Sequence record: PZ583741.1
Origin: a phage
Direction: 5' to 3' (one strand)
Length of the DNA: 64,000 bases
Within the stretch, counting starts at the first letter, position 1, and each line of letters opens with the position of its first letter. Below the pieces are notes generated by a model. It was not told the origin of the DNA, did no database searches, and worked only from the letters and a program-made list of their open reading frames with translations. A program made the position numbers and the translations under genes. Shown here piece after piece: positions 3,056 to 45,120 of the stretch.

Positions 3056-3112
3056 TGATGTAGATACTATGCACCACCACTCAATCTACGTCAATAGCCA
3101 TTGTGATAGAAT
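3056..3112 (+). promoter_or_regulatory. divergent promoter region: inverted motif pair TGATGTAGAT / ATCTACGTCA plus extended -10 TGaTAGAAT
   Basis: motif copies at 3056..3065 and 3084..3093; TAGAAT at 3107..3112 upstream of lysozyme gene. Confidence 0.4.
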
Positions 3113-3137
3113 TAATCATTATTGAACAGGAGGCAGA

Positions 3138-3578
3138 ATGAAACTATCGCAACGCGGCAAAGAACTCATTAAGTCGTTCGAAGGGCTTGAGCTACGCGCT
3201 TATCCAGACCCAGCCACGGGAGGAGCGCCGTGGACCGCTGGATATGGCCACACTGGCGCAGATGTGAAGCCTGGAATGACAGTGACACAGGAAATAGCTA
3301 ACGCATGGCTGGATAGTGACGTGAAGAAGTTTGAGGATGGCGTGTCAGCACTGTTAACTGCACCAACCACTCAGTCTCAATTCGATGCAATGGTGTCTCT
3401 GGCATACAACATTGGACTTGGCAACTTCCGCAAATCAACCCTACTACGCAAGCATAACGAGAAGTGCTACACCTGCGCCGCGAGTCAGTTCCTTGTGTGG
3501 AATCGCGCTGCTGGTAAGGTTATGAATGGCCTGACGCGGAGGCGTAACGCAGAACGCGCTATGTATATGGGGCAATGA
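3138..3578 (+). CDS. endolysin, GH24 (T4-type) lysozyme
   Basis: ELIKSFEGLELRAYPD...GYGHT motif pattern typical of phage lysozymes. Confidence 0.85.
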   Translation: MKLSQRGKELIKSFEGLELRAYPDPATGGAPWTAGYGHTGADVKPGMTVTQEIANAWLDSDVKKFEDGVSALLTAPTTQSQFDAMVSLAYNIGLGNFRKSTLLRKHNEKCYTCAASQFLVWNRAAGKVMNGLTRRRNAERAMYMGQ

Positions 3579-3814
3579 AAAAGCTAAGTAACTGGCTACT
3601 CGGCGCGTGGATTTCATTCTGTTCGCTGTTGCAGTTATGGCCCGATGCAATGATGCATGTATGGGTAATGATGCCGGATGACCTGAAAGCGGCTCTACCG
3701 CCAATCGTGGTGAAAGGGGTGAGTTATTCAATCATGCTGGTTGGCATACTCGGAAAGATGCACGGCATGAGGAAGGAAAACCGGAGGCTGCGCGATGATG
3801 TCGATTCTCGCTAA
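3575..3814 (+). CDS. putative holin / small membrane protein
   Basis: 79 aa, hydrophobic segments, between endolysin and spanin genes, ATGA overlap. Confidence 0.4.
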   Translation: MKKLSNWLLGAWISFCSLLQLWPDAMMHVWVMMPDDLKAALPPIVVKGVSYSIMLVGILGKMHGMRKENRRLRDDVDSR

Positions 3815-4274
3815 ATACTGGCGACCACTGGCAATTATTATAATTGTTGCTGCTGGCGCGTTGTGGGTTCGTAGTGAAGTCATCAACTACGGCGACCAGC
3901 GATACGCAGAAGGCAAAGCTCAGGCAATCGCAGAACAGAAGGCCGCAGACGAACAAGAGGAGCAACGACGCAATGCAGAACTGCAAAAGATTCAGGCCGA
4001 CGCACAGCAAAGGATTGATGCTGCGCGTAATGATTCTGTCAATGCTGCTGCTAAGTCTGGCAGGTTGCGCGCAGAAACAGAGCGCATCCGTAAGCTCGCA
4101 GAGCGTTATACCGGGACTCAGCCAGCAAGCGTACCAACCAGAAAGGTCATCGTTATGCTCACCCAATTGCTTGACGAGAGCAATGATGCTTATAGACGAA
4201 CAGCGGAGGAAGCTGACAGATATTACAACGCTGGACTGACTTGTCAAAAACAGTACGAATCACTAATTAAATGA
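3795..4274 (+). CDS. i-spanin (Rz-like)
   Basis: N-terminal TM helix then charged coiled-coil region; position after endolysin. Confidence 0.65.
   Translation: MMSILAKYWRPLAIIIIVAAGALWVRSEVINYGDQRYAEGKAQAIAEQKAADEQEEQRRNAELQKIQADAQQRIDAARNDSVNAAAKSGRLRAETERIRKLAERYTGTQPASVPTRKVIVMLTQLLDESNDAYRRTAEEADRYYNAGLTCQKQYESLIK
4018..4239 (+). CDS. o-spanin (Rz1-like lipoprotein) embedded in +1 frame of i-spanin
   Basis: signal peptide ending in lipobox LSLAGC; wholly inside 3795..4274. Confidence 0.6.
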   Translation: MLRVMILSMLLLSLAGCAQKQSASVSSQSVIPGLSQQAYQPERSSLCSPNCLTRAMMLIDEQRRKLTDITTLD

Positions 4275-4279
4275 TATAA

Positions 4280-4370
4280 TCACAAGTGCAGCTAGTCCGG
4301 CCAGACGAAAAGCAACTCATCACTGCCTGCTGCATCCCGCCAAAAGATGACCCTGATGAGGAATCCAATA
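4280..4370 (+). promoter_or_regulatory. conserved 5' leader element, copy 1 (hairpin CUCAUCA / UGAUGAG overlapping the SD GAGGAA)
   Basis: ~85 bp with high identity to 42207..42290. Confidence 0.5.
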
Positions 4371-4871
4371 ATGACTCAAGAAGAATTAAAAAGCATCCTT
4401 AATTACAACAGTGAAACGGGAAAATTCCAATGGGTATCAATGAAGTGGAAAAAGTCAAACCGTGTTGGCAGCAAAAAGTCTAACGGCTATATGCAGGTGG
4501 CTATAGGTGGCAAGGTTTATTATCAGCACAGACTGGCTTGGCTTTATATGACTGGTGAGATGCCTGACTCAGAGATTGATCATATAAATGGAATTAGGGA
4601 TGACAACAGGTGGTGTAACTTGAGGTTAGCAACAAGATCACAAAATGAGATGAATACAGTACTCTCATCAGCAAACACCTCTGGTGTAAAAGGGGTTAGT
4701 TGGGATAAGAGGAATAAGAAATGGTGCGCAACAATAGTGATAAATAGAAAAACAGTATGGCTAGGAAGACATTCATCCATCGAGTCAGCAAAAGCGGTGA
4801 TAGAAAGAGCAAGAGCACATATACATGGTGATTTTGCTTGCGATGGAATAAGGCAAGAGAAGCGGGATTGA
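4371..4871 (+). CDS. HNH homing endonuclease with AP2 DNA-binding domain
   Basis: HRLAWLYMTGE...IDHINGIRDDNRWCNLR HNH motif; C-terminal AP2-like region. Confidence 0.85.
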   Translation: MTQEELKSILNYNSETGKFQWVSMKWKKSNRVGSKKSNGYMQVAIGGKVYYQHRLAWLYMTGEMPDSEIDHINGIRDDNRWCNLRLATRSQNEMNTVLSSANTSGVKGVSWDKRNKKWCATIVINRKTVWLGRHSSIESAKAVIERARAHIHGDFACDGIRQEKRD

Positions 4872-4902
4872 TGTGTGAGGCGCAGTATAATTCGCTGCGC
4901 AA

Positions 4903-5149: not shown

Positions 5150-5366
5150 TGTAATTACCCGCCAGAAACAGAACGCTACCCGTGCTAATCAGCACCTGTT
5201 TTGCGTTTGCCTGCGACAGATTCTGCACGATGAATTGCGCCGTTTCTGTGCCGATTTTCAGCACTGCGCTGCCGTCGCTGTTCAGTGATACCAGTTGCGC
5301 GGAAGTGTCAGCAATATTGGTGAAGTTCGCGTTTCGTTGCGCGATTGTGATGTCGCAGAATGACAT
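5058..5366 (-). CDS. hypothetical protein (uncertain)
   Basis: 102-aa ORF abutting upstream gene. Confidence 0.3.
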   Translation of the reverse strand: MSFCDITIAQRNANFTNIADTSAQLVSLNSDGSAVLKIGTETAQFIVQNLSQANAKQVLISTGSVLFLAGNYNAPDLECSLVRIVETAVEESVDEPTTLPAE

Positions 5367-5635
5367 TATTTAATCTCTCCATTCAGTTCATTAACAATTA
5401 ACGTTGCATAGCCAGCAATATCTTTCCAGCTATCATCATAGGTCGGATCGCCATTCAGAATGCGCCCAATTTTGTGCTGAATCATGTCGAGTGCCTCGCG
5501 CTGGCTTGGCGTCAGGTTATGCCAACCATCCACTTCACGCATCACATCTTTCAGTTCCTGCATGATTTCAGCACCGTCTTTGAATTTGCCATATCTACTG
5601 CCGCGTTCGGTGATGAGTTGCTCTGTATCTTTCAT
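5366..5635 (-). CDS. hypothetical protein
   Basis: 89-aa ORF tightly packed with HNH gene. Confidence 0.5.
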   Translation of the reverse strand: MKDTEQLITERGSRYGKFKDGAEIMQELKDVMREVDGWHNLTPSQREALDMIQHKIGRILNGDPTYDDSWKDIAGYATLIVNELNGEIK

Positions 5636-6121
5636 TTACTTTAATGCTCCGTGATTTTTATGGAAACAATATTTTCCCTCAGCTGCCTTTCTGCATTCCG
5701 CAGCCATTGACAAGTTTGAGAATCTGCCAAGCGCAATCTGCTTTCCGTTCACGGCAATCTTTGCATACCATTTCTTACTCTTGTTATCCCAACTAACTCC
5801 GACAACATTACTCGTGTTATCAGATCGCATAGAAAGATTCTTAGCGTTCTGCTTTCTGCTTACCAATCTGAGATTCTCAATCCTATTATCATCACGAATG
5901 TGGTTTATATGATCGATCTCCATCCCCTCTGGTATCTCACCATTGTGCATTTCCCAAATTATTCTATGCATCAGTCGCACTTTTCCAAAGCAATGAACCT
6001 GCATGTACCCATTACCTGCCATGCTTCCTGCCAGCCTCCCTATTTTCATGTTTCTGTTTGTTTTTATCTTCCAATATAGCAACCCATCACGGTATTCGAA
6101 CACATCATTCCAATCCATCAT
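5636..6121 (-). CDS. HNH homing endonuclease with AP2 domain
   Basis: HRIIWEMHNGEIPEGMEIDHINH...DNRIENLRLV and C-terminal GxHKNHG; paralog of 45718 and 51801 genes. Confidence 0.85.
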   Translation of the reverse strand: MMDWNDVFEYRDGLLYWKIKTNRNMKIGRLAGSMAGNGYMQVHCFGKVRLMHRIIWEMHNGEIPEGMEIDHINHIRDDNRIENLRLVSRKQNAKNLSMRSDNTSNVVGVSWDNKSKKWYAKIAVNGKQIALGRFSNLSMAAECRKAAEGKYCFHKNHGALK

Positions 6122-6320
6122 CACTCTCCTTTATTGTGACTTTGTTATTCTCGTCAACACTGAAGTTGGCGCGAATTAAATCATACATGTCATTTTTAGA
6201 CATATCAGCCAGCGCCACATAGCAACGGGCAAAGTAGCGAACATCACGGAGAGTCAGCGGCTGCCGCTTCTCCACAATGCTGGTGATAATGTCCATCGGC
6301 TCGCGTCGTGGTCTTGGCAT
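6105..6320 (-). CDS. hypothetical protein
   Basis: 71-aa ORF with AAGGAG RBS. Confidence 0.5.
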   Translation of the reverse strand: MPRPRREPMDIITSIVEKRQPLTLRDVRYFARCYVALADMSKNDMYDLIRANFSVDENNKVTIKESDDGLE

Positions 6321-6347
6321 ATTTGCTACTCCTTCTCGAAAAACATC

Positions 6348-6392
6348 TTGACGTTTCTACATCACCTAGTCAATACTTATTGACGTAGATTG
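6348..6392. promoter_or_regulatory. divergent promoter/operator region with motif pair TCTACATCA (6356..6364) and TGACGTAGATTG (6381..6392)
   Basis: strand-switch intergenic region; motif in both orientations. Confidence 0.4.
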
Positions 6393-6419
6393 TACCACAA
6401 CGGAAAAGGTGATGTGGAA

Positions 6420-6677: not shown

Positions 6678-6872
6678 ATGGCGCATGACGAACTGTACGA
6701 AGAATCGTTAATCCAGCGACTGAATGAAGTTGAGCGCACACGCGAATGGCTGGAATGCGAACTGCGAGAAGTGCGCAATCGCCTGCAACGCAAACGCAGT
6801 CAGCAGAAGGACGTTATCGACTGGTCTGGTGATACGCCTAAATTTAATAACCTTGGAGAATGGGTAAAATGA
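6678..6872 (+). CDS. hypothetical protein
   Basis: 64-aa ORF, GGAGAA RBS. Confidence 0.5.
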   Translation: MAHDELYEESLIQRLNEVERTREWLECELREVRNRLQRKRSQQKDVIDWSGDTPKFNNLGEWVK

Positions 6873-7117
6873 GCGCACCACATATGCCGATGATGAACGA
6901 TGAAATGCTATTACAATGCCCGTTTTGTGGTTGTGATGACGTAAGGGTTATTGATGACGGAGAAGGTTTGCACGTTGAGTGTGGAGATTGTTTTTGCCGC
7001 ACTGACTCGTATTGCTGTGCATCCACGGCAATGAAGAAATGGAACACCAGCAACGGACACCAATACACCGCTGACGACTTCAATCAGGCAGCAGCGGAGC
7101 GTGAGCATGGACTATAA
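6869..7117 (+). CDS. zinc-ribbon protein, Lar-like (restriction-alleviation family candidate)
   Basis: CPFCG...C..C zinc ribbon; ATGA overlap with upstream gene. Confidence 0.45.
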   Translation: MSAPHMPMMNDEMLLQCPFCGCDDVRVIDDGEGLHVECGDCFCRTDSYCCASTAMKKWNTSNGHQYTADDFNQAAAEREHGL

Positions 7118-7595
7118 ATCACAAATCATGCGCGTGATTGTCAATCATCCGGGAGCAACGCGTGCATATATTGAAAAGCATTGCGGAGGAAAACATTCAA
7201 GCACCACAACACATCGCCTGCATGAGATGCTTGCGCTTGGATTCATTCGTCGAGAGAAGTCCGTGATTCGTGGTGGTAAGTGGCAGTATAAGTATTTCAT
7301 CTCTGATGATGCAGCAGGAATTGATGATGCGATTAAGTGCCATTTGCTTGATAACGCTGGCGCAGAGGTTAAAGAAATCAGCGCCACAACCGGCATTGAT
7401 TATCGCATCGTAAAAAGCCGCATTCGCATCATGTTTCATAATGGCGATGTGACGCGAAGCTATGACCACCACAAGAAGCTATGGCGTTATTCTTGGCATG
7501 AGCAGGAAGTTAACGTCAGCAACCTGTTCAATTCACTTCTTCGCAACGTAAGAGGTCAGCGTGGGGAAAGCAAAACGCAAGAAGCAAGAGTATGA
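7107..7595 (+). CDS. hypothetical protein (possible winged-helix DNA-binding)
   Basis: ORF 7101..7595, ATG at 7107 with GGAG RBS. Confidence 0.45.
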   Translation: MDYKSQIMRVIVNHPGATRAYIEKHCGGKHSSTTTHRLHEMLALGFIRREKSVIRGGKWQYKYFISDDAAGIDDAIKCHLLDNAGAEVKEISATTGIDYRIVKSRIRIMFHNGDVTRSYDHHKKLWRYSWHEQEVNVSNLFNSLLRNVRGQRGESKTQEARV

Positions 7596-7720: not shown

Positions 7721-8074
7721 ATGAGATGGGCTATTAAGCATAAATCAGGCATGACTCTGTTTGTTACATCGGATGAGTTTATTGCCAATAACCGTAGAAA
7801 GATGGGATGGATAGTGGAGGAAGTGAAGATGACTAGTAGAGAGCAGTTTGAGCTCCAATGCAGAAATGGGTTGATCAATGGCGGATTAGCAGTGTTTGAA
7901 AATGGTGTTTACGCTTCCGAATTAACAAGAGCTGTCTGGGCTGGATGGAAAGCATCGCGCGCAGCAATTGAAATTGAATTGCCAGAGGAAGAAAGTTTGG
8001 GATGCTACGCTATTTACTATGCAGAAGATGTTATTGAGGCAATTGAACAATCAGGCTTAAAGGTGAAAAAATGA
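7721..8074 (+). CDS. hypothetical protein
   Basis: 117-aa ORF. Confidence 0.5.
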   Translation: MRWAIKHKSGMTLFVTSDEFIANNRRKMGWIVEEVKMTSREQFELQCRNGLINGGLAVFENGVYASELTRAVWAGWKASRAAIEIELPEEESLGCYAIYYAEDVIEAIEQSGLKVKK

Positions 8075-8397
8075 TTATCCAACTAAACGACATTATGAAA
8101 GCAGACATCATTAAGCTTGAAGATTATGACATGCAACTAGCATTTGAAATCGAAACTGTTGAACGCCAACTGCAATATGCGGATAAGAAGAATGATCGCA
8201 TCTGGCATGAGAAAGCACTTAAGGCACGCGATCACATGAAGCGCACGCGAGCACTCATTAAAACGCGACTGGATAAGCTGTATTACGGCGAGGAGCGCAT
8301 GCTGCATGGAGCGATTCTGGCGCAAATCCGCAAGGAAATGCCGATTGGAAAATTCATGTCATACGTTCACCGGGCAAAGCAGGAGGCTGGGTTATGA
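8071..8397 (+). CDS. hypothetical protein
   Basis: 108-aa ORF, AAGGTGA RBS. Confidence 0.5.
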   Translation: MIIQLNDIMKADIIKLEDYDMQLAFEIETVERQLQYADKKNDRIWHEKALKARDHMKRTRALIKTRLDKLYYGEERMLHGAILAQIRKEMPIGKFMSYVHRAKQEAGL

Positions 8398-12878: not shown

Positions 12879-13060
12879 TTAATATCCTCATCATCGAAGT
12901 GGCGTTCATTCCATCTTTCTGCCGCATCTTCGGCACCGTACTCGCTTCTCTTTTCAGTGCCACAATAACCGCATTCAACAACAAACCTGTCCTGCCAGTT
13001 ATTATCAATGAATGCCGATGGTGTATTTCCGCAAAACGGGCATATTTTTAATTTAATCAT
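12857..13060 (-). CDS. zinc-ribbon protein, Lar-like (second copy)
   Basis: CPFCG...CGYCG zinc ribbon. Confidence 0.45.
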   Translation of the reverse strand: MIKLKICPFCGNTPSAFIDNNWQDRFVVECGYCGTEKRSEYGAEDAAERWNERHFDDEDIKCLQNHS

Positions 13061-13869: not shown

Positions 13870-13870
13870 A

Positions 13871-14062
13871 TCATTCACCGCTTTCTTCTAACAATTGCTC
13901 GTAATATGCGACGTATTCATTAGCCAGATGGTACAGGCGCTCAGCAGACTTGCGTTCTGCATTGCTTAAGTCATCAATAGACTCAATGTTGCCAATTGCA
14001 TCAACGCAATCGTTGAAGTCTTGCTCTGTGTTACGAAATCGACAGTAGGACATGTTTGCCAT
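13871..14062 (-). CDS. hypothetical protein
   Basis: 63-aa ORF. Confidence 0.45.
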   Translation of the reverse strand: MANMSYCRFRNTEQDFNDCVDAIGNIESIDDLSNAERKSAERLYHLANEYVAYYEQLLEESGE

Positions 14063-14325: not shown

Positions 14326-14441
14326 TCCATCACCTCTAACATTTATTGTTGTTTCTACGTCACTAACTATAAACGCCCCATCAATCTACGTCAACAGGAA
14401 TATGCTAAAATCATGCTAATCAAACAACAGGAGATTTGAGC

Positions 14442-16947: not shown

Positions 16948-16975
16948 ATAAAGCCGCACTTGGCGGCCTTATTAC
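16948..16975 (+). terminator. putative terminator
   Basis: hairpin gccgcacttggcggc. Confidence 0.4.
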
Positions 16976-17001
16976 TGGTTTAAGCATTGCCAGCGTGCTT
17001 T

Positions 17002-17067
17002 CTTAATATCCAGCCCCGTAACCCATACATACCCCTACATATGATTGCGATAATGCTGGATATTAAG
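17002..17067. repeat. 13-bp perfect inverted repeat CTTAATATCCAGC / GCTGGATATTAAG separated by 40 bp, in a ~560 bp ORF-free region
   Basis: read directly: 17002..17014 and 17055..17067. Confidence 0.6.
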
Positions 17068-17458
17068 TGTTGTGGTGGCCGGTGCTGATCTCCGGCATAA
17101 GGCGCTTATTCGGCGGCGTCGAGCTTGCTTATTCGCTTGAGCCATCCTCGTGAGTCAGCCACGTCCCACTGCGCATCAGCCTGCGCATTCACCACAACGG
17201 AAAGAGCACTGATGCGCTCACTAGGGACTCCTTAGCCATAACCAACGGGCTTCTGGTACACCAATGCTCTTACCTGTTGTGTGCCCATTATTAATCACAG
17301 CGGGCCACTGCGCCGAATTTGTTTACAAGGAATCGGAAGACCTTGCTGACTTACAGGCTATTACGCCGCTATCAGAACAACATCATCGTTTGCATTTATC
17401 TTTGTGGTCAGTTTCTAAAAAGTCCGCAAAGTCGCTCACGAAAACTATCTGAGATACA

Positions 17459-17501
17459 ATCTACACCACAAAAATAACGCTGTCAACACCTGTGATATAA
17501 T
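17459..17501 (+). promoter_or_regulatory. tail-gene promoter: ATCTACACCA - N12 - TGTCAACACC - TGaTATAAT
   Basis: extended -10 at 17493..17501; same architecture as 19179..19227. Confidence 0.45.
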
Positions 17502-19139: not shown

Positions 19140-19178
19140 AACTCACCTCATTTATTCATATCTCGTTTCGATGACTTG

Positions 19179-19227
19179 AATCTACATCACCACCTCGCAG
19201 GTGTCAACACCACTGAGATGATATAAT
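19179..19227 (+). promoter_or_regulatory. tail-gene promoter: ATCTACATCA - N12 - GTCAACACC - TGaTATAAT
   Basis: extended -10 at 19219..19227. Confidence 0.45.
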
Positions 19228-22339: not shown

Positions 22340-22370
22340 AAAGAAGCCCCTCACGGGGCTTTGTTCATTA
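22340..22370 (+). terminator. rho-independent terminator
   Basis: hairpin agcccctcacggggct. Confidence 0.55.
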
Positions 22371-23430: not shown

Positions 23431-23564
23431 TTTGAACCCTCGGTTAAAGGTGGTTTGAAGTGATGCAGCAGGCGATAACCAATCGCTTTTCGGACGCCTC
23501 CTAGCTGCACTTATTATTGTACCATCAGCGTGCTAAAATACAACAATACGAGATGGAGACTATC

Positions 23565-27366
<3,802 letters not shown>

Positions 27367-27405
27367 TACAATATACATCAAATTCACAAAGGAGCATTTA
27401 TTATA

Positions 27406-32489: not shown

Positions 32490-32526
32490 TGTTAACCTCA
32501 CTCATCATCACGTAAATGAATCTACA

Positions 32527-32967
32527 TCAATCCACATCAAAAGGCAAGCCAAAATAGGTCAACACTGCAATCTTTATCTGGTCGAGTCCACACGCCACCG
32601 CAGAGAATGCACCAGCGCTGGCGCTATCGTTGAGAAACGGTATCTGTCCTGGTTGCCATTTGCTAAGCGTTGAATCATGGCGCTTCAACTCTATCGTCGC
32701 TTTATGCCACCCACCCCCGGGCGTCAGGATTATCACATCAGACACCCCTGACCTGACACCTTTCCTTGCGCGCGATGCAAGATGCTGCACTGAGTTGCTT
32801 TTGGTCTCCTGAGACGGATGGAACCACAGCACATCAGGAAACCGGTAATCCATCCACCACTTGAACGCTATCAATTCGGAATCCTCAAGCGGACACTCGC
32901 CGCGGTAACCATCATCAAAAATTAATACCTTGTCACTCAGCTCATGCTGCTTGAATCGCTTTTTCAC
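32527..32967 (-). CDS. VRR-NUC domain nuclease
   Basis: DVIILTPGGGWHKATIELKRHD...Q pattern; GTG start with AGGAGAG RBS. Confidence 0.55.
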   Translation of the reverse strand: MKKRFKQHELSDKVLIFDDGYRGECPLEDSELIAFKWWMDYRFPDVLWFHPSQETKSNSVQHLASRARKGVRSGVSDVIILTPGGGWHKATIELKRHDSTLSKWQPGQIPFLNDSASAGAFSAVACGLDQIKIAVLTYFGLPFDVD

Positions 32968-34876: not shown

Positions 34877-35397
34877 TATTTTACCCTACCAAATTCACCA
34901 TGATACTTTTTTGATGCTTCCGCATAAACTTTTGCTGCTTCTTCTTTTGTATCATATCTGCCGAGCCATATTTTTTTATTATTTACATGTATAGAGCAAG
35001 TCCATTTTTTTGTTTGCTTGCAAAAACCAACCCCCTTTACACCGGATGTGTTATGGCTTGGAATCCTCATGTTTCTTAAATTTCCATTAAAGTTTGTTTC
35101 TCTTAGATTTTCTATCCTGTTATTCAATCTATTACCATCTTTATGGTCTATTATTAACTCAGGCCAATAACCATGCACTAAAGCCCAAATTATTCTATGA
35201 ACCTTTATATCAACACCTAAAAAGCCAACCTGAAGATATCCACTTACAGTCTTAGAACCTGCAATAGCGCCACGTTTAACCCTGTTTGTTGTTGTTCTTT
35301 TCCATATGAGATTTATTCCGTCATATGAAAAATACTCCCGCAACGTGGATACTGGTATTGACTTCTCTTTTAACTTCATCAATTCGAAATCATTCAC
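34876..35397 (-). CDS. HNH homing endonuclease with AP2 domain
   Basis: HRIIWALVHG...IDHKDGNRLNNRIENLR; AP2-like C-terminus. Confidence 0.8.
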   Translation of the reverse strand: MNDFELMKLKEKSIPVSTLREYFSYDGINLIWKRTTTNRVKRGAIAGSKTVSGYLQVGFLGVDIKVHRIIWALVHGYWPELIIDHKDGNRLNNRIENLRETNFNGNLRNMRIPSHNTSGVKGVGFCKQTKKWTCSIHVNNKKIWLGRYDTKEEAAKVYAEASKKYHGEFGRVK

Positions 35398-35459
35398 TTT
35401 ACGTTACCCTCATTCAGTGTTACGCTTAAAGCATACAAACAGTAACAGATGGAGTCAAC

Positions 35460-36410
35460 ATGTTTTCTTGGGAAGAGATACAACAAAAGATGATTGGAAA
35501 TTGGGAGGCGGCACTACTGTCAATAGTCAACATAGACAGGAAAATTTTTTCTGGAAAACATCAACCATGCCCTCATTGCATGGGGGTTGACCGGTTCCGT
35601 TGGGATAATCACTTCGAAACAAAAGGCGACGGCGGAGCAATCTGCAATCAGTGCGGTTCCGGTAGTGGCATGAACTGGCTGATGAAACTCTCCGGCATGA
35701 GCTTTCCCGAAGCACTGGAGGCGCTGGGTGGATTCCTGAACATGCACCCGCGTGAAAAGCTGGAGGCAATCAGGAAGGAGCTGCCGAAGATAAATCACAA
35801 CGATGACTTCATCACAGAGCAGGAAGTCGCAGCAATCATGGCTAAAACGACGCGTGTCTCGATGAATGAGTGGACTTTGATAAACGGTATTGGTTGCGAC
35901 GTTAATGTCGCCAGAGGTAAATCTGGAGAGCTTATTGTGGTTGAGATGGTGCGTGCTGACACAATGAAGCCGTGCAACGTGGCATTCATTGGCATGGATG
36001 GTGATGCATTCAAAACATTTTATAAAGCAGGATACAACAAAGACTCAGCCATAAACGGAAAACTCACGCGAGGCTCGATAAGCCCAATCGGAGAAGACAA
36101 CGGAAAGTTCATTTATCTGGTATCTGATTATGCCGATGCATGGAAATGCCATTACTTCACTGGCGCTCATGTCTGGTGTTGCTGGTCGCCGGAAAACATG
36201 TGGGAAGTGGTGCGTTCTGTTAGCGATGAGACGAAGGCGAGATTGCGCTGCATAGTTAATTATAAATTTGACGAACTTTGCGCTGCGGAAAATTCAGGGC
36301 TTCCGGTGATGTTGCCTGATGATGCTGACACTATCAGGATGGCGAAGAGAATCAGAAGAAAGATTTATGATGCTGGCGAGTTGATAGAGAAAATGTCAGT
36401 CAGCAGATAA
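35460..36410 (+). CDS. DNA primase (P4-alpha-type zinc-ribbon primase domain)
   Basis: CPHCMGVDRFRWD...GAICNQCGSG zinc-ribbon motif. Confidence 0.65.
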   Translation: MFSWEEIQQKMIGNWEAALLSIVNIDRKIFSGKHQPCPHCMGVDRFRWDNHFETKGDGGAICNQCGSGSGMNWLMKLSGMSFPEALEALGGFLNMHPREKLEAIRKELPKINHNDDFITEQEVAAIMAKTTRVSMNEWTLINGIGCDVNVARGKSGELIVVEMVRADTMKPCNVAFIGMDGDAFKTFYKAGYNKDSAINGKLTRGSISPIGEDNGKFIYLVSDYADAWKCHYFTGAHVWCCWSPENMWEVVRSVSDETKARLRCIVNYKFDELCAAENSGLPVMLPDDADTIRMAKRIRRKIYDAGELIEKMSVSR

Positions 36411-36441: not shown

Positions 36442-36843
36442 TCAGCGTTTCATCTTGTCAATTTCATCGTCAATAATCTTTATTATCTCTCGCTTTGCAT
36501 TCCTCCATGCATAAATGGCATCAAGCGAAGCTCTGTCTTTTGAATCACCGGTAGCTGTTGAATACAGGATTATGTCTCCCATCTTACAAAATGTATCTAT
36601 GTAAACAGCCCTAAAAAGACCATCGCCGCAACTCCAGCACAAGCAATTATTTATTTTCTTGCAATCATTACCAATGATTCCGGTGCTAAACAACTGAATC
36701 CAGCCAATAGGTTCACCAATGGAAATGTCATACTCATCACTATGACCACTAACAGAGCACTCAAGACGGAACGTTCGATATTCATGCAGATTGAGACATA
36801 ATGATCTGTAAATAAGGAATTTAGATCTTTTCTTAACGCTCAT
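36442..36843 (-). CDS. hypothetical protein
   Basis: 133-aa ORF, GAGGGGG RBS. Confidence 0.5.
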   Translation of the reverse strand: MSVKKRSKFLIYRSLCLNLHEYRTFRLECSVSGHSDEYDISIGEPIGWIQLFSTGIIGNDCKKINNCLCWSCGDGLFRAVYIDTFCKMGDIILYSTATGDSKDRASLDAIYAWRNAKREIIKIIDDEIDKMKR

Positions 36844-38435
36844 CACAACCCCCTCATAAATCTCATGCGCTTAACGGCAGCAGAAAGATAATTTCTAACC
36901 GTTGAGTTCATCCGCAGACCATCCCATGAACCATCACTGCACATCTTAATTGCTCTTGGATTATCCCTGTCCAGCATTAGTGGTGAATGTTTGTTCTCCT
37001 CAATAGCAAGAAGAACTTCATAAACAAATTTATCAGGCGTTAACGTGATGTTGTTCGAGTCAGCAGAATTGATTATCTTTTCGACTCTGTCACGGCACAG
37101 CTTGTTCTTTATAACAGACAAATAAGGCGTTTTAATGAATGCTTGTGATTCACAAATTCGCTTTATTTTTTCAACAATGTTCGACCACTCAGTATTCTCA
37201 AGTCCATCAAATGCCTGTTCACCCTCAAGGAATCTTTTCAGCCCCGCGAGGTGTTCAAGAACAGTGAGATAACCCCACTCGATATGCTCCGTCGTAACTG
37301 ATGGTGTCATTCCCTGACGACTTGACAGATCGGTATACGCCGCCAGAGTTGCAAGATCGACAATCATTAGACCCATGCGAGGGATAACATCACCAACAAC
37401 ACCATCGCAATCACCAAGCTCACTTTCCAGTTTCATAGACAGAGATCTGTGCAGTTTTTTCGCATTATCATCAGCCCATACAACGTGAGTTTTCGCGGTA
37501 AGAACCCTACCTTTCCACTCATTGATTATTTTTCTTGAAAGCGTACCACTCACTTCCACATCCTTCATCGCTGGCATTTCCTCACCAGCAAGATGTCCAA
37601 GCTGGAACAGAACGCGACCCATACCGCCATCTTTCTGCCATGAACGCGCAGCATCTATTCCCTGCTCTGGTGTGACAGTAATCAGCGGAACAAATTTTGC
37701 GTTTTCAATTCCACCGTCTTTTGTTGCAATTTCGTACTCATTCATTGCCGACTTTAGCGCGCGCCCAACGCTGTGATCCATCATCGCAAGTCGCTTATAA
37801 TCTATAACTCCTTTTCCATCATCGCCACCAGTAAGTGGCACTATCCATCCCTCAGCGCTTGCTGCCGCCATGATGCGTTTTGGGTTTTGTTCCCAAGTAA
37901 GGTTTTCAAGCAACTCCTTGATTATTGGTCTGTTAGGAACCCACACGCCGCCATCAGTGAGGCCTCTATACCACGCCATAGTACCGCCAAGATATGCATT
38001 ACGCGGGTTATTCCAGTCTTCAAGATGTTGCTTGTCATCATTCACAACGTAGAGCAAAGACCCACCTCCGGCAATCAGGTCTAACTGCATCTGTTTCGTA
38101 GATGTTGATTTAGACGCGCAAACTCTGGACCCTATTCCCAGCGCATTGGCATATGCCCTGACGAAACTCACCGGGGCACCCTTACCTGCACCAGAGCGAG
38201 CTACCAGAAATATGCCAGTATTGCAGATACTACCTGTTGGACCAATCAAGTATCGTCCAGCCATCGCCTGAGCAAGACCCAAAGCGCCAGTTAAACGATA
38301 TCTTCCACCTCCATCACGGCGCTCAAACCCCCTTGCGATCTCATCCATAAACTCACCAAGTGCCCCGGGAGCATCCCGCTTTATGCCCATAGCCAGAGAC
38401 TCAAAATCAATCGAACTCATCAATACACCATCCAT
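36843..38435 (-). CDS. P-loop NTPase, putative replication helicase/ATPase
   Basis: Walker A ARSGAGKG, Walker B-like LLYVVNDD. Confidence 0.55.
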   Translation of the reverse strand: MDGVLMSSIDFESLAMGIKRDAPGALGEFMDEIARGFERRDGGGRYRLTGALGLAQAMAGRYLIGPTGSICNTGIFLVARSGAGKGAPVSFVRAYANALGIGSRVCASKSTSTKQMQLDLIAGGGSLLYVVNDDKQHLEDWNNPRNAYLGGTMAWYRGLTDGGVWVPNRPIIKELLENLTWEQNPKRIMAAASAEGWIVPLTGGDDGKGVIDYKRLAMMDHSVGRALKSAMNEYEIATKDGGIENAKFVPLITVTPEQGIDAARSWQKDGGMGRVLFQLGHLAGEEMPAMKDVEVSGTLSRKIINEWKGRVLTAKTHVVWADDNAKKLHRSLSMKLESELGDCDGVVGDVIPRMGLMIVDLATLAAYTDLSSRQGMTPSVTTEHIEWGYLTVLEHLAGLKRFLEGEQAFDGLENTEWSNIVEKIKRICESQAFIKTPYLSVIKNKLCRDRVEKIINSADSNNITLTPDKFVYEVLLAIEENKHSPLMLDRDNPRAIKMCSDGSWDGLRMNSTVRNYLSAAVKRMRFMRGL

Positions 38436-38948: not shown

Positions 38949-39126
38949 AGTCACCTCAATCCGCATTCCAACAGTAACTATAGATAAAAAATAAAATTAA
39001 CGCAACGCAAAACAGGTCTAACCAGCAACAACAGCTACCACACTTAACAACTAGTCTGACCACCATCTCGTATCAGATATATGTGGATGGTGCCCGTCGT
39101 TTAATTTGTGCTCGATTTTTACCTAA

Positions 39127-39470
39127 TTTACCGTATATTTATTGGTCAGTTTTTGCATAACTAATTGATTTATATGATTTACCGGTTTTACCGGAACTCT
39201 AAGGAGTATTTTCATCATTGAGAGTAGTAGTATATTAATTGGTCTAATTTTTAAATAACTCTAATAAAATCAATATATTAATATAAGAAAGTAACTTGCT
39301 TACTTATATAGGATTTACCGGGTAAAACCGGTAACTCCTCCGCATCCCGCGTCATTACTGGATTGATTTTTACCACCTGTAGGTAAATACAGTAGTTTTT
39401 AAGTCAGGATTGTTTTTGTAAGATGTTGATTACCGGTACTTTATTTGAAAAACCGGGATTTACCGGGTTT
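39127..39470. repeat. iteron-like array: at least 8 copies of TTTACCGG in direct and inverted orientation inside a ~640 bp AT-rich ORF-free region (candidate replication origin or genome terminus)
   Basis: copies near 39127, 39178, 39187, 39314, 39322(inv), 39430(palindromic TACCGGTA), 39452(inv), 39460. Confidence 0.55.
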
Positions 39471-39544
39471 TTGTTGTGTGATTAATAATTGCGCAATTGG
39501 TCATGTTTCAACAGAACACACTGATGCGACATCTGAAAATCATA

Positions 39545-39574
39545 TTGACGTAGAATTACAACTGATGTAGATTG
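39545..39574. promoter_or_regulatory. early promoter/operator with motif copies TTGACGTAGAAT and TGATGTAGATTG
   Basis: A-module motif at strand-switch region. Confidence 0.35.
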
Positions 39575-39603
39575 AACTCATCGAAACAAACGAGGGTGAA
39601 GAG

Positions 39604-42187: not shown

Positions 42188-42206
42188 CTGATTTATAATA
42201 ATTAAT

Positions 42207-42290
42207 GCGGCTAGGGGGCACCCGAAAAGCGACTCATCACCGCCTGCCGCATTCACTTCAATGATGCCCTGATGAGGAATCTATATATGG
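42207..42290 (+). promoter_or_regulatory. conserved 5' leader element, copy 2 (same hairpin/SD arrangement as 4280..4370)
   Basis: aligned by eye to copy 1. Confidence 0.5.
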
Positions 42291-44806
42291 CACGCAAAAG
42301 ACTGTCAGCACCAGCAATTGAAAAACTCGAAGAGATTATTGGCGATGGCGTGATTGATACGCCTGAATCCGCGGTGTTCGGTGTTGTTAATACAGATAAG
42401 CAGATTGTTCGCAAACTAAAAATGACGCAAAGCGGAGTTGATGACGTTAGCGACTCTGATATTAACGTTGATCACCTGATACCAGAAAAGCTGGAAAAGC
42501 TACTTTACCCCAAGCGAAATAAGATTGTGTTTGGCGGGCGCGGATGCTTAGCCATCGGCACAATGGTTAGGATGTTTGATGGTAGCCTAAAACGCGTAGA
42601 GGATATCGCTGTTGGCGATAAGGTTATGGGTCCAGACAGTAAACCACGAAATGTTTTAAGCATCTGCCGTGGGTTTGATGACATGTATACGGTTCATCAA
42701 AAATATGCTGAGGACTACACTGTCAACTCAAGTCACATACTGTCATTACGAAAGATTCCATCTGCTATCAGTGACGAGACAAAAACACCGGATGGTAAAA
42801 GAATTTATCGTTATTACCCAAATGACCCTGAAATACTTAATATCGGTGTTTCAGAATATTTGTCGCGCGCAACTTCCACGAAGTTCCGTCATGTCTTTAA
42901 AGGGTGGCGAACAGGATGGGATTTTCAGGAACAAAGCGTTCCAATTGACCCGTACTTTCTTGGTTTATGGTTAGGTGATGGCTCATCTCGTAGTGTTGAA
43001 GTATGCACGCCTGATCCAGAGATAGTTGACTACCTTCACGGTGTGGCAAGCCAATATGGGATGCAGGTAAAGGTTCGCGACGATGATAGATGCCCTGTCT
43101 ATGCGATAACTAATGGTCGAGCTGCTGGCATGGGGAAAAACACCAACCCTTTACTAACTAAAATGCAGCAGCTTGGGGTGATTAATAATAAACACATACC
43201 TGACTGCTATATTAAAAACAGCAGACAGGTAAGACTTCAGATTCTGGCTGGGCTATTGGATACTGATTCGCATTACCACAAAGAAAAGAAAAGCTATTGT
43301 TTTACATCAATAAATAAAGATATAGCCTTCTCTTTGATGGATGTGGCAAGATCACTTGGCTTCAAGTCAAGCATAATCAAAAAGACCGATGTCACCTTTG
43401 AGTATAAAGGTGAGAAAAGAATATACGAAAAGGATGTGTGGGAGGTGTTCGTTAGTGGTGAACTTCATACAATCCCATGCCGAGTAAAAAGGAAGATAGC
43501 AGAGAAAACCAAGTCAACCCGTGGAAAGATGACTGAGGTGTCATTGTCTTATGCCGGGCATGGTGTATACGCTGGATTCACTCTTGATGGCGATCATCTT
43601 TTCTTGCTTGCTGATGGCACAGTTACACACAACAGCGGAAAAACAAGAACAGTAACTACAATACTTACGGAGCGTGCACGCTTTAAGCCTGACAGGATAG
43701 CTTGTTTCCGTGAGATTCAGCAGTCTATTGAGGATAGTTCGTATCAGGAACTGAAAGACGAGATTGACAGGAAGGGCGAGACAAAAGAGTTTCGCGTAAT
43801 CAACAACGAAATAACACACAAGGTAACGAAAGCAAAGTTCCGCTTTAAAGGTCTGTATCGCAACCAGACGACCGTTAAAGGCTTTGCTGGCATTACAGTC
43901 GCTTGGGTTGAGGAGGCTGAAAACGTTAGCCAGACAAGCTGGGAAATCCTCACTCCAACTGTTCGCGCTGATGGCTCTGAGATATGGGTGACATTCAACC
44001 CAAATAAGGAGCATGACCCCACATGGAAGACGTGGGTTGAGCCGTTTTATAGCAAACTGCGCTCAAGTGGCGGTATTTACGAAGACGAAGAAAACCTGAT
44101 TATTGAATGTAACTATTCAGATAATCCGTGGTTTTGGGATACGCCACTACCCAGCCAAATGCAACGAATGAAAGAGACAGACTTCGACCGCTATCAATGG
44201 GTTTGGGGTGGTCGCTTTAACAAGAGGAATGACGAGCAGGTCTTTGGCGGCAAATGGCGCATTGATAACTTTGAGGTTAAACCTGAATGGCACGGCCCAT
44301 ACTTCGGGATGGACTTCGGGTTTTCCACTGATCCTACCGCAATGATTGAAGTTTACATCGAAGAACTACCAGGTGCACGGCGCAACATTTATATTAATCG
44401 CGAATATGGCAAGGTTGGCCTTGAGATTACCGATACACCAGCTGCGATGGAGCAATCATTCCCGATGGCTAAGCGCGCGCGATGGTATGCAGACTGCGCT
44501 CGACCGGAAACCATCAGCCACATCAAGCGTTCTGGCTTTGATATTCATCCATGCACAAAATGGCCGGGAAGCGTTGAGGATGGCGTAACGTGGCTGCGCG
44601 GCTGCGACAGTATCATCATCCATGAGCGATGCAAGGAAATGCAGAATGAAGCGGCAATGTACAGCTATAAGGTTGATAAGCTGACCGGAAATGTACTCAC
44701 GGATATTGTTGATGCATATAACCATTACTGGGATGCCGTTCGCTATGCGCTTAATGACCACATCGTCCAGCGCGGTAGCGGAATGCTAATCCGGCGCAGG
44801 AGATAA
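42287..44806 (+). CDS. terminase large subunit, intein-containing
   Basis: Walker A GRG|SGKT split by intein; C-terminal nuclease region. Confidence 0.9.
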   Translation: MARKRLSAPAIEKLEEIIGDGVIDTPESAVFGVVNTDKQIVRKLKMTQSGVDDVSDSDINVDHLIPEKLEKLLYPKRNKIVFGGRGCLAIGTMVRMFDGSLKRVEDIAVGDKVMGPDSKPRNVLSICRGFDDMYTVHQKYAEDYTVNSSHILSLRKIPSAISDETKTPDGKRIYRYYPNDPEILNIGVSEYLSRATSTKFRHVFKGWRTGWDFQEQSVPIDPYFLGLWLGDGSSRSVEVCTPDPEIVDYLHGVASQYGMQVKVRDDDRCPVYAITNGRAAGMGKNTNPLLTKMQQLGVINNKHIPDCYIKNSRQVRLQILAGLLDTDSHYHKEKKSYCFTSINKDIAFSLMDVARSLGFKSSIIKKTDVTFEYKGEKRIYEKDVWEVFVSGELHTIPCRVKRKIAEKTKSTRGKMTEVSLSYAGHGVYAGFTLDGDHLFLLADGTVTHNSGKTRTVTTILTERARFKPDRIACFREIQQSIEDSSYQELKDEIDRKGETKEFRVINNEITHKVTKAKFRFKGLYRNQTTVKGFAGITVAWVEEAENVSQTSWEILTPTVRADGSEIWVTFNPNKEHDPTWKTWVEPFYSKLRSSGGIYEDEENLIIECNYSDNPWFWDTPLPSQMQRMKETDFDRYQWVWGGRFNKRNDEQVFGGKWRIDNFEVKPEWHGPYFGMDFGFSTDPTAMIEVYIEELPGARRNIYINREYGKVGLEITDTPAAMEQSFPMAKRARWYADCARPETISHIKRSGFDIHPCTKWPGSVEDGVTWLRGCDSIIIHERCKEMQNEAAMYSYKVDKLTGNVLTDIVDAYNHYWDAVRYALNDHIVQRGSGMLIRRRR
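42545..43633 (+). mobile_element. intein (363 aa) with LAGLIDADG homing endonuclease domain inside terminase Walker A motif
   Basis: starts CLAIGT, ends VTHN followed by extein Ser; two LAGLIDADG motifs (LGLWLGDGSS, LAGLLDTDSH). Confidence 0.8.
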
Positions 44807-44807
44807 A

Positions 44808-44840
44808 AATAAAGCCCTCATCTGAGGGCTACTTTCATTT
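44808..44840. terminator. bidirectional terminator
   Basis: hairpin agccctcatctgagggct. Confidence 0.55.
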
Positions 44841-44987
44841 AATCAATGCTCGTCGACCAAGTTCAGCAATCCATTCCGCCGCATCCTCTATTTTGTTGAA
44901 CTCATAAAGATGCTTGCCGTCTTCCATGACATAAAACAGAATGCGACCAAATTTATTTTTCTTTGCGCTAAATTTAACATCTTTCAT
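44835..44987 (-). CDS. small hypothetical protein (50 aa)
   Basis: manual ORF with strong GGAAGGAG RBS, convergent with terminase. Confidence 0.4.
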   Translation of the reverse strand: MKDVKFSAKKNKFGRILFYVMEDGKHLYEFNKIEDAAEWIAELGRRALIK

Positions 44988-45014
44988 ATTTTCACTCCTT
45001 CCGTTTCATGAGTT

Positions 45015-45120
45015 CAATCTACATCACAAGCATATCCACGTCAACATTTATTGTTGTTGATAAATCTGCATCACCACACTTGACCAATCTACACCGAGCG
45101 CATAGTATAATCTACATCAG
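45015..45120. promoter_or_regulatory. cluster of at least four ATCTACATCA-type motif copies with -10-like TATAAT
   Basis: copies at 45015, 45063, 45086 and 45108. Confidence 0.4.

Follow-up and report, generated by a model that had tools for sequence, protein, structure and literature searches.

Organization of the window and the phages compared

The stretch of DNA analysed here (the window; 64,000 nucleotides of sequence record PZ583741.1) harbours two phages. Positions 1-47403 (module A) constitute a complete Skatevirus-like virulent siphophage, and positions 47405-64000 (module B) belong to a separate, different phage. An assignment of module A to the subfamily Guernseyvirinae was rejected, its RefSeq relatives being Skatevirus. 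We compared it with the relatives Bas81, VSt472, HC6, seszw and Akira, and with the Klebsiella phages KP591P3 and VLCpiS13a. Neither an integrase nor a repressor is annotated in seven related genomes. The Skatevirus-type group has been described as lytic (PMC9825161; 10.1101/2024.09.12.612763). In the literature on Skatevirus and phage Vi II-E1 we found no description of the motif reported below, and no published account of the transcription programme of Skatevirus-type phages was found. The motif, here called M, is present in module A as 18 copies distributed over ten promoter regions; these are listed in Table 1 together with the genes of two candidate DNA-binding proteins.

Table 1. Copies of M in module A and genes of candidate readers (positions in the window; all promoters are predicted).
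Feature	Sequence	Position	Strand	Context
M copy	TTGATGTAGATACT	3055..3068	+	near +1 of leftward promoter 3094..3066, inverted relative to it
M copy	TTGACGTAGATTGA	3081..3094	-	-35 (TTGACG) of leftward promoter TTGACG-17-CATAGT (3094..3066)
M copy	GTGATGTAGAAACG	6352..6365	-	spacer of rightward promoter TTGACG(6348)-18-AATACT(6377)
M copy	TTGACGTAGATTGT	6380..6393	+	near +1 of rightward promoter 6348-6377; also overlaps leftward TGgTACAAT (6418..6389)
M copy	GTGACGTAGAAACA	14350..14363	-	near +1 of leftward promoter 14394..14366
M copy	TTGACGTAGATTGA	14381..14394	-	-35 of leftward TTGACG-17-TATAGT, anti-restriction / ParB-like operon
M copy	GTGGTGTAGATTGT	17456..17469	-	-10 (TAGATT) of leftward TTGACA-17-TAGATT (17486..17458)
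M copy	GTGATGTAGATTCA	19177..19190	-	-10 of leftward TTGACA-17-TAGATT (19207..19179)
Weak conserved M-like copy	TTGATGTATATTGT	27368..27381	-	between tail-protein and tailspike genes; overlaps TGaTACAAT
M copy	TTGATGTAGATTCA	32517..32530	-	-10 of predicted internal promoter TTGCCT-17-TAGATT (32547..32519), upstream of exonuclease VIII gene
M copy	TTGATGTGGATTGA	32527..32540	-	10 bp offset from the 32517 copy; spacer of promoter 32547..32519
M copy	TTGACGTAGAATTA	39545..39558	+	-35 of rightward TTGACG-17-TAGATT (39545-39573)
M copy	CTGATGTAGATTGA	39562..39575	+	-10 of promoter 39545-39573; direct repeat of the 39545 copy, 17 bp apart
M copy	GTGATGTAGATTGA	45014..45027	-	-10 of leftward TTGACG-17-TAGATT (45044..45016)
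M copy	TTGACGTGGATATG	45031..45044	-	-35 of leftward promoter 45044..45016
M copy	GTGATGCAGATTTA	45061..45074	-	just upstream of -35, rightward promoter TTGACC(45080)-17-TAGTAT(45108)
Weak M copy	TCGGTGTAGATTGG	45084..45097	-	spacer of rightward promoter 45080-45108
M copy	CTGATGTAGATTAT	45107..45120	-	over -10 / +1 of rightward promoter 45080-45108; 20 nt before ATG at 45140
162-aa basic (pI 9.7) tandem winged-helix protein		7107..7595	+	PHROG 1687, 'MarR family'
ParB/Spo0J-type HTH protein, 272 aa		13060..13878	-	alternative candidate reader

M is an enriched, asymmetric 11-bp word

An earlier note on this DNA had described an operator-like motif, ATCTACRTCA, in intergenic regions of module A and had suggested a single phage regulator of early and late divergent transcription units. 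The observation was borne out: the window holds nine exact matches against 0.33 expected, and none of 100 shuffles reached nine. The exact matches lie at 3056(-), 3084(+), 6381(-), 14384(+), 19180(+), 32520(+), 39563(-), 45017(+) and 45110(+). When up to one mismatch was allowed, 27 matches were obtained against 8.3 expected, including those at 6355, 14353, 17459, 32530, 39546, 45034 and 45064, to which the earlier note had also pointed. An unbiased k-mer count of module A returned ATCTACATCA / AATCTACATCA as the most over-represented 10-/11-mer. A weight matrix added the weak conserved copy at 27368 and the copy at 45084, which brought the total to 18.

Read on the other strand, M is (T/G)TGAYGTAGATT(G/C)A, with an asymmetric 11-bp core, TGAYGTAGATT. 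Among 204 distinct site contexts, information was restricted to positions 2-12 of M, and alignments showed M and its partner hexamers to be invariant while flanks and spacers diverge. M agrees with its own reverse complement at 6 of 14 positions and its information content is asymmetric; it is therefore no palindrome. Neighbouring copies are spaced by 10, 17, 24, 26, 28, 29 or 31 bp, showing no helical phasing, which fits independent binding to each copy and equally fits no binding at all. The reported absence of the motif from module B was confirmed (no exact copy; a single matrix match, at 62753, consistent with chance). An exact 14-mer scan of viral contigs gave mostly chance single matches, and several copies together were found only in Skatevirus-like contigs. 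One unrelated locus in that scan was an exception, carrying an inverted pair.

M lies in non-coding regions and is conserved across phage genera

The distribution between coding and non-coding DNA was assessed on the RefSeq annotation of the relative VSt472. Nineteen of its 20 M sites fall in the non-coding 8.0% of the genome (binomial p = 2.5e-20), and the claimed intergenic bias is thus upheld. Relatives among Escherichia, Salmonella and Klebsiella phages carry 14-20 copies each, at orthologous positions. The Klebsiella phages KP591P3 and VLCpiS13a show only about 76% capsid-gene identity, yet M is again the top k-mer. No copy was found in a temperate phage having only structural genes in common. 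At the lysis region, the downstream copy (3055..3068) is inverted in Skatevirus, and its KP591P3 counterpart has the opposite orientation and is direct.

The further claims that M occupies nearly every strand switch, often as inverted pairs, held in part. Many copies do lie at divergent regions, but those at 32520/32530 are located between same-strand genes, that at 17459 is at no ORF strand switch in the window, and the divergent regions 23430-23517 and 35397-35460 carry no copy, relatives having one at the primase region. Similarly, only 3056/3084 and 6355/6381 are inverted pairs, whereas 14353/14384, 39546/39563 and the cluster at 45014-45120 are direct repeats. This cluster is the largest, with five copies within 107 bp.

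M is associated with two classes of predicted promoter

We determined the position of M relative to sigma-70 hexamers in 231 contexts. M provides the -35 in 66 and the -10 in 51 of them, in properly spaced promoters, against 11 and 15 with shuffled flanks, and 113 of the 231 are out of register. Nine of the 18 copies of module A are in the -35 or -10 register of predicted promoters, and the remaining ones are found in spacers, at +1 or upstream of promoters; sigma-70 use alone accounts for half of the copies. Since the registers vary and one copy flips orientation between genera, M was read as a unit and not as a fixed promoter element. Copies of the -35 type have a conserved TAGAT in the spacer, and those of the -10 type a conserved TGAYG at -17..-13; in neither place are bases read by sigma-70. 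The pattern TTGACR-N16-18-TAKADT occurs six times against 0.33 expected, with M present in all five occurrences of module A, and the three top-scoring promoter-like sites of the first 20 kb are all M-linked.

The second class consists of extended -10 words (TGNTAWAAT; 15 against 6.9 expected), every one of which is on the late-gene strand. The M promoters are predicted to drive mostly leftward early or accessory operons and overlap the late-gene extended -10 promoters back-to-back. The copy at 3081..3094 also covers the -35 position of a rightward extended -10, TGaTAGAAT (3104-3112, lysis genes), and the copy at 14381..14394 that of TGcTAAAAT (14403-14411). The leftward promoter 17486..17458 is back-to-back with a rightward TGaTATAAT (17493-17501, major tail gene), and 19207..19179 with another (19219-19227, tail assembly / tape measure operon). 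Elsewhere, the predicted rightward promoter 39545-39573 would drive a small-gene cluster beginning at 39604, and the predicted leftward promoter 45044..45016 a 50-aa gene at 44835-44987; the copy at 32527..32540 overlaps the final codons of the VRR-NUC gene. We infer that these predicted promoters are used and that they divide into early and late ones as proposed. The earlier suggestion that M serves both transcription directions agrees with what is seen in divergent regions, where M overlaps predicted promoters of both kinds, early-type ones pointing leftward and late-type ones pointing rightward. Because its copies lie almost only in short non-coding promoter regions, often as the -35 or -10 of the strongest promoters, M most likely serves to control transcription throughout the phage genome, as that note had supposed.

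Candidate readers of M

The 7107..7595 product, the only annotated transcription factor, had been put forward as a candidate regulator. Its AlphaFold model (pLDDT 82) has two tandem winged-helix domains per chain, and the best fold matches were the tandem winged-helix proteins SelB and RPC62, with TM ≤0.45. The match to Pfam MarR_2 scored 18.6 bits, below the cut-off of 27, and covered residues 6-52 only. A MarR-family regulator carries a single winged helix in each subunit, along with dimerisation helices, and recognises a palindromic operator; this product and M do not conform to that combination. Akira, a natural phage, retains only a 23-aa remnant of the gene, yet has 19 M sites. Of 70 records of viable seszw deletion mutants, about 43 lack the gene as well; MZ375351, the mutant checked, lacks it and keeps 18 M sites. 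This product is disfavoured as the reader of M, since it has been lost in Akira and most seszw mutants while the sites persist.

The ParB-like protein matched Pfam HTH_ParB (2.1e-11) and KorB (8.6e-6) as well as the Spo0J structure 1vz0 (8e-13); TIGR00180 was matched at 5e-10, under its cut-off. Within Skatevirus it shows 98-99% identity, against 80% in KP591P3. VLCpiS13a encodes only the last 50 aa of the protein and has 14 M sites, and phage PT1 encodes a 50%-identical homologue and is devoid of M. ParB-parS and KorB-OB systems have a palindromic site of 13-16 bp, found together with its protein; M is not such a site, and in VLCpiS13a and PT1 protein and sites do not occur together. Repeats of TTTACCGG at 39.1-39.5 kb were considered as ParB sites and discarded, as they are present in the window and Bas81 only and co-vary with the helicase/primase type.

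Other proteins were also considered. The DUF6378 protein (5366-5635) was rejected as a regulator, its KP591P3 counterpart being 91% identical and that of seszw only 39%. The 68-aa protein encoded at 45140-45346 appears HTH-like by eye, but it matched no family model, is acidic and has a putative recognition helix beginning DEDF; it is unlikely to bind DNA. The protein encoded at 8071-8397 is present in all genomes examined and is basic, with an invariant Arg/Lys-rich helix; its AlphaFold model (pLDDT 88.5) is a helical hairpin that gave no significant fold match. The small proteins kept in every genome examined showed no recognisable DNA-binding fold, and no DNA-binding protein retained in all these genomes was found.

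Proposed explanation and its alternatives

We propose, and consider the chances about even, that M is an asymmetric operator-type site within consensus sigma-70 promoters, through which a putative factor controls early promoters in a coordinated manner. A sequence-specific factor, probably phage-encoded, would bind every copy independently. With copies lying over the -35, the -10, the spacer or the start site, it would occlude host RNA polymerase and so shut down, in coordination, the early/accessory and replication operons transcribed leftward as well as three small-gene operons transcribed rightward. In four divergent regions, at about 3.1, 14.4, 17.5 and 19.2 kb, a late extended -10 promoter (TGnTAnAAT, without -35) and the controlled promoter overlap back-to-back, and silencing of the early promoter would free the overlapping late promoter of the lysis, connector, major-tail or tail-assembly operon. 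Both the binding of a protein to M and the sign of the regulation we infer.

M may instead be a promoter building block that needs no dedicated factor, supplying TTGACG as -35 and then TAGATT as -10, either of which is read by the host sigma-70 polymerase; surplus copies would be decoys or competing polymerase-binding sites, or would serve, within the initially transcribed region, as -10-like pause elements, and conservation would reflect promoter strength and spread by recombination. We hold this to be unlikely, though it has several points in its favour. Roughly half the copies match the -35 or -10 register exactly, a complete promoter is formed by two copies 17 bp apart at 39545-39573 and again at 45044..45016, and no universally kept DNA-binding protein was found. 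In addition, TAGATT/TAGAAA falls at about +3..+8, in promoter orientation, in the copies at 6380 and 14350, a placement resembling that of sigma-dependent pausing at lambda PR'. However, this explanation leaves aside the copies out of register and the conserved positions outside the hexamers, whose bases sigma-70 does not contact. Two copies, those at 3055 and 6352, run opposite to the promoter that they overlap, one copy flips between genera, and the 107 bp before a 50-aa gene hold five copies. Somewhat less probable still is that M is no classical repressor's operator but a dual-use module, with a -35 and a -10 in 11 bp, by which a small phage factor or a remodelled host polymerase would switch the whole genome from consensus -35/-10 promoters to the overlapping extended -10 late promoters; dispensability of both recognisable DNA-binding proteins would then be expected.

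Positive control, in which a phage factor at M activates host polymerase or re-targets it to extended -10 promoters lacking a -35, in the manner of a T4 MotA box or a class II activator, appears more doubtful again. At the lysis (3084-3112) and connector (14384-14411) promoters, which have no -35, 11-13 bp separate the end of M from the downstream -10, which places it at -30, and the same is seen in KP591P3. A MotA box is found near -30 at all promoters of its class, whereas for M this holds at these two only: at the major-tail and tail-assembly promoters (17459, 19180) M lies 27 and 32 bp from the -10, a distance that is different again in KP591P3, the extended -10 promoters at 4272, 8880, 23531 and 46195 are without a copy, and most copies lie inside promoters already at consensus. 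We give slightly less credence to the idea that the phage exploits a host protein that binds M, be it a transcription factor or a nucleoid protein, and that is conserved across the Enterobacteriaceae. M is invariant in Escherichia, Salmonella and Klebsiella phages, while the candidate regulators that the phage itself encodes either show 36-80% identity or can be dispensed with; against this, M fits no enterobacterial factor consensus known to us. A non-transcriptional site, be it the target of an HNH-AP2 homing endonuclease, a packaging (pac) repeat close to the terminase gene or a linker for recombination between gene cassettes, is highly improbable. There are at least three HNH_3-AP2 genes, confirmed by Pfam at 4347-4871, 5636-6124 and 34876-35397, and a fourth ORF (45715-46194) matches an HNH gene of KP591P3 by tblastn only; the largest M cluster is just downstream of the terminase gene, and motif-bearing regions border variable cassettes. 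However, HNH genes vary in number and place from one relative to another, with none annotated in a 36.5-kb seszw mutant that keeps 18 M sites; dispersal over ten loci is unlike a pac site, and the tight link to promoter hexamers would be left unexplained.

Comparison with known systems

Several phage and plasmid regulators resemble the proposed operator-type system. C1 of phage P1 recognises a 17-bp asymmetric operator of consensus ATTGCTCTAATAAATTT, of which there are more than 14. As with M, the site is asymmetric, has many dispersed copies overlapping promoters (here predicted), occurs singly or in pairs in either orientation with independent binding (here proposed), and itself holds -35-like and -10-like words. 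In contrast, P1 is temperate and C1 maintains lysogeny, whereas the present group is virulent; the M word is 11 bp and not 17, and none of the scanned proteins was recognised as a C1 homologue. The stoperators bound by gp71 of phage L5 are 13-bp asymmetric sites, about 30 per genome. They too lie genome-wide in short intergenic regions and contain a -35-like hexamer, and the site doubles as a true operator at a promoter. Unlike M, stoperators lie within transcription units in one orientation and block elongation, and L5 is temperate; M is at promoters, with the copies at 3055 and 6352 inverted and orientation flipping between genera.

Protein p4 of phi29, a virulent Bacillus phage, acts where early and late promoters diverge at close spacing; the late promoter is without a -35, and this one factor represses early promoters and turns on the late one, as is proposed here. 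Its sites, however, are inverted repeats in one control region as against an 11-bp word at ten loci, and no p4 homologue was recognised. KorB of RK2, a ParB-family global repressor with 12 OB operators, shares with the present case a network of promoter-proximal sites covering most operons, and the present phage likewise encodes an HTH protein of ParB/KorB type; the asymmetric M differs from OB, a 13-bp palindrome, and VLCpiS13a keeps M sites without the ParB-like gene. T4 AsiA and gp39 of Thermus phage P23-45 exemplify phage-directed shut-off of -35-dependent promoters, with extended -10 late promoters. The early -35/-10 consensus class and the late TGn-extended -10 class lacking a -35, on the late-gene strand only, are alike, but AsiA and gp39 target sigma region 4 or the beta flap and do not work via a DNA word, and no homologue was identified here. 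The five tandem copies before the 50-aa gene and the flips in orientation do not suit promoters of a single-subunit RNA polymerase, and no phage RNA polymerase gene is annotated in the seven relatives.

Significance

Skatevirus-type phages are common isolates and are in development for biocontrol of Salmonella and E. coli, and several are in the BASEL collection. A single conserved 11-bp word marking essentially all of their strong early promoters, as predicted here, offers a direct experimental handle, and in hundreds of related genomes M can help to annotate promoters and transcription units. That the sites outlast the loss of either obvious DNA-binding protein sharpens the question of what reads M. 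If M were indeed a dual-use switch module, it would represent a new temporal-control logic for virulent siphophages.

Enrichment and placement of M in module A

The earlier note had reported at least 15 copies of the word ATCTACRTCA in module A (1-47403), and none in module B. Both claims held, as 18 copies were found at ten loci of module A and no exact copy in module B. The exact word occurred nine times against 0.33 expected, a count not reached in any shuffle, and 27 times against 8.3 expected with one mismatch. It was also the top 10- and 11-mer of module A in an unbiased k-mer count. Alignment of the copies on the complementary strand gave the operator-like word M, (T/G)TGAYGTAGATT(G/C)A. 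Among the inverted pairs described earlier, just 3055/3081 and 6352/6380 were confirmed; the remaining pairs and the five-copy cluster at 45014-45120 are direct repeats.

Related phages carry 14-20 copies each, at matching positions. In VSt472, scored with its RefSeq annotation, 19 of the 20 sites lie within the non-coding 8% of the genome (p = 2.5e-20), so that the intergenic placement claimed earlier, as against equal frequency in coding sequence, was upheld. Capsid genes of Klebsiella phage KP591P3 are only ~76% identical, yet M is again its top 9- to 11-mer. A scan of a temperate Cronobacter phage with only structural genes in common gave no copy. When four regions were aligned between Skatevirus and the Klebsiella phage, M and its partner promoter hexamers showed no change, in contrast to the diverged flanks and spacers. 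Across 53 related sequences with 204 distinct site contexts, information was limited to positions 2-12 (TGAYGTAGATT); as the contexts had been picked with a matrix, the sharp boundaries alone are informative and not the core.

An outward-facing, M-like inverted pair 7 bp apart, TCAATCTACGTCAA-CCAATAT-TTGATGTAGATTTA, was seen in three IMG/VR contigs unrelated to the Skatevirus-like phage (L010 6958-6992, L012 6470-6504 and L069 470-504), within a 650-bp element common to these low-GC contigs. Homologues of the candidate binding proteins were sought there and none was found. The pair may be due to chance or be the palindromic operator of an unrelated system.

M within predicted promoters

M contains a -35-like TTGACG followed directly by a -10-like TAGATT. 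Within the first 20 kb, the best three sigma-70-like sites are each linked to M. The strict pattern TTGACR-N16-18-TAKADT was counted six times (0.33 expected), and its five matches in module A all carry M. Nine copies of module A serve as neither -35 nor -10. Across relatives, 66 of 231 M contexts were in the -35 register and 51 in the -10 register (11 and 15, respectively, in shuffled-flank controls), and 113 were in neither.

Coordinates of M copies, predicted promoter elements and other features of the window
Feature	Position	Strand	Remark
Complete predicted promoter from two M copies	39545-39573; 45044..45016		copies 17 bp apart
M as -10 of predicted promoter	17486..17458; 19207..19179; 32547..32519		
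M as -35 of predicted promoter	3094..3066; 14394..14366		
Out-of-register M	6352, 32527, 45084		in spacer
Out-of-register M	3055, 6380, 14350, 45107		at or near +1
Out-of-register M	45061		just upstream of promoter
TGnTAnAAT words	3104, 4272, 8880, 14403, 17493, 19219, 23531, 27363, 46195	+	without -35
TGNTAWAAT	14403	+	before connector genes
TGNTAWAAT	17493	+	before major tail gene
TGNTAWAAT	19219	+	before tail-assembly genes
TGNTAWAAT	46195	+	before portal gene
TGaTAGAAT, related form	3104	+	before lysis genes
TGaTACAAT, related form	27363	+	before tailspike gene
Rfam int-alpA RNA motif	42204-42267	+	42.6 bits vs gathering score 35.8
tRNA-Arg	50839-50916		module B's own
Further HNH_3-AP2 genes, at least two	4347-4871; 34876-35397		
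T5orf172/MUG113-type endonuclease gene	22351-23430		interrupts tail operon

The conserved TAGAT falls within the spacer in -35-type copies, and -10-type copies have the conserved TGAYG at -17 to -13; sigma-70 makes no base-specific contacts in that spacer stretch or at -17 to -13. Downstream of the promoter in the lysis region, the M copy is direct in KP591P3 and inverted in Skatevirus. Since the register varies, conserved bases lie outside sigma-70 contacts and the orientation flips, M is read as one whole rather than as a fixed promoter element. The 15-mer ACATTTATTGTTGTT adjoins an M copy in two control regions (14331-14346 and 45045-45060), and is also invariant in KP591P3 at the 14.3-kb site; it may represent a further control word or a 5' leader that the regions share.

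Two predicted promoter classes overlap at divergent regions

The extended -10 word TGNTAWAAT occurred 15 times in the window against 6.9 expected, in all 15 cases on the + strand, which in module A carries the structural and lysis genes. Several of the TGnTAnAAT words lie immediately ahead of late operons, those for lysis, capsid, connector, major tail, tail assembly, tailspike and portal. At 3.1, 14.4, 17.5 and 19.2 kb, predicted extended -10 promoters and leftward M-carrying promoters overlap back-to-back, and from the coordinates two polymerases should be unable to bind together. The leftward operons begin with the anti-restriction gene and include superinfection-immunity, ParB-like, RusA and replication genes, a content that fits early expression. 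The strong predicted leftward promoter at 17.5 kb is directed into 16950-17455, 500 bp free of ORFs and tRNA genes, where relatives have one to three minus-strand tRNA genes; this region may be the source of a non-coding transcript or a tRNA-cluster remnant.

Candidate binding proteins

The 7107-7595 product, proposed in the earlier note as regulator, is basic (pI 9.7) and matches PHROG 1687 ('MarR family'), and its match to Pfam MarR was below cut-off. It is predicted to fold as a tandem winged helix (pLDDT 82), with fold matches to generic tandem winged-helix proteins only. The family is narrow; the KP591P3 orthologue is merely 36% identical, and the M word is the same in both. Loss of the gene in two phages argues against the proposal: the viable seszw mutant MZ375351 (36.5 kb) has kept 18 M sites, and the natural phage Akira has 19, out-of-register ones included, with a 23-aa remnant corresponding to the first 23 codons of the gene (L130 31129-31293). 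Only 27 of 70 seszw records matched 7107-7595, as against 70 of 70 for each of the capsid, ParB-like and 45140-region queries. Genes 3-10 of seszw are reported to form a deletable block (PMC9825161).

The alternative candidate, the ParB/Spo0J-type protein 13060-13878, shares 98-99% identity within Skatevirus and 80% with its KP591P3 counterpart. M is not palindromic, which counts against this protein as its reader. Klebsiella phage VLCpiS13a has 14 M sites, and its ParB-like protein is reduced to the last 50 residues, fused to the anti-restriction gene's first 16 codons (L131 7618-7800). Salmonella myophage PT1 (L128) encodes a 50% identical homologue and has zero M. Because the winged-helix and ParB-like deletions could be recent, or readers of M redundant, either protein might still read M. 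Small non-structural proteins in all eight genomes compared include 6105-6320, 6678-6872, a Lar-like protein, 8071-8397 and the acidic 45140-45346. The 8071-8397 product has an invariant basic helix and a predicted helical-hairpin fold, for which no fold match was found. The most repeated word of PT1 is an 11-bp palindrome, ACAATSATTGT (~6-7 sites).

Other elements of the window

Module A is a virulent siphophage genome, complete and of the Skatevirus group, which shares ~90-91% identity with Escherichia phage HC6, Salmonella virus VSt472 and BASEL phages Bas77-81. It was opened within the portal gene, leaving portal sequence at both ends (C-terminal part 6-371, N-terminal part 46232-47403). 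From ~47405 on follows a 16.6-kb piece of another siphophage, of vB_Ec-G8 / SU57 type.

The AT-rich, non-coding 550 bp at 38990-39540 carry TTTACCGG / CCGGTAAA repeats at 39178, 39187, 39314 and 39459, among them a perfect 13-bp palindrome, TTTACCGGGTAAA, at 39314. These repeats are restricted to the window and Bas81, with TTGGATAAG-type repeats in KP591P3 instead. As the repeat type tracks that of the adjoining helicase/primase gene (36843-38435), the region is probably a replication origin with iterons. A perfect 14-bp palindrome, GAGATGCGCATCTC (19290-19303), within the opening part of the first tail-assembly gene, is unchanged and co-located in VSt472 and KP591P3; a dimeric DNA-binding protein, e.g. 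the ParB-like one, may bind there. Another conserved palindrome, GTTGACAGCTGTCAAC, lies at 10065.

The large terminase ORF (42272-44806) encodes 844 aa against ~475 aa in relatives, with an intein containing a LAGLIDADG homing endonuclease (Hint, Hom_end; residues ~92-375) ahead of the Terminase_3 domain. The int-alpA motif abuts this gene upstream. The conserved DUF6378 gene (within 5366-6124, - strand) encodes only 89 aa, whereas its length in Bas81 and KP591P3 is 163-172 aa. Its N-terminal half is replaced by an HNH-AP2 endonuclease gene (5636-6124).

M as a proposed operator-type site

Our favoured reading, of moderate confidence, takes M for an operator-type site. A factor specific for the sequence would bind every copy independently and thereby occlude early promoters; at overlapping promoter pairs, early occlusion would also release the late promoter. 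It is unlikely that M is instead a promoter 'brick' with host polymerase as its only reader: M does supply promoter hexamers, but its conserved bases extend beyond sigma-70 contacts and about half of the contexts across relatives are in neither register. An activator box seems rather improbable, and binding of M by a host factor is slightly more doubtful still. That M marks an endonuclease, packaging or recombination site is very improbable.

In layout, M comes closest to the asymmetric operators that P1 has dispersed for C1 and to the stoperators of L5; in logic, to the p4 switch of phi29, which acts at divergent promoters, and to the extended -10 late promoter use of T4 and P23-45. M does not belong to the MarR or ParB/KorB operator families, whose defining features were looked for and not found. 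A search of the searchable literature gave no description of M or of Skatevirus promoters. The M network is best filed as belonging to a known kind, the phage-wide promoter-embedded operator network, for which its occurrence in a virulent phage and a single 11-bp word usable as either promoter hexamer are unusual.
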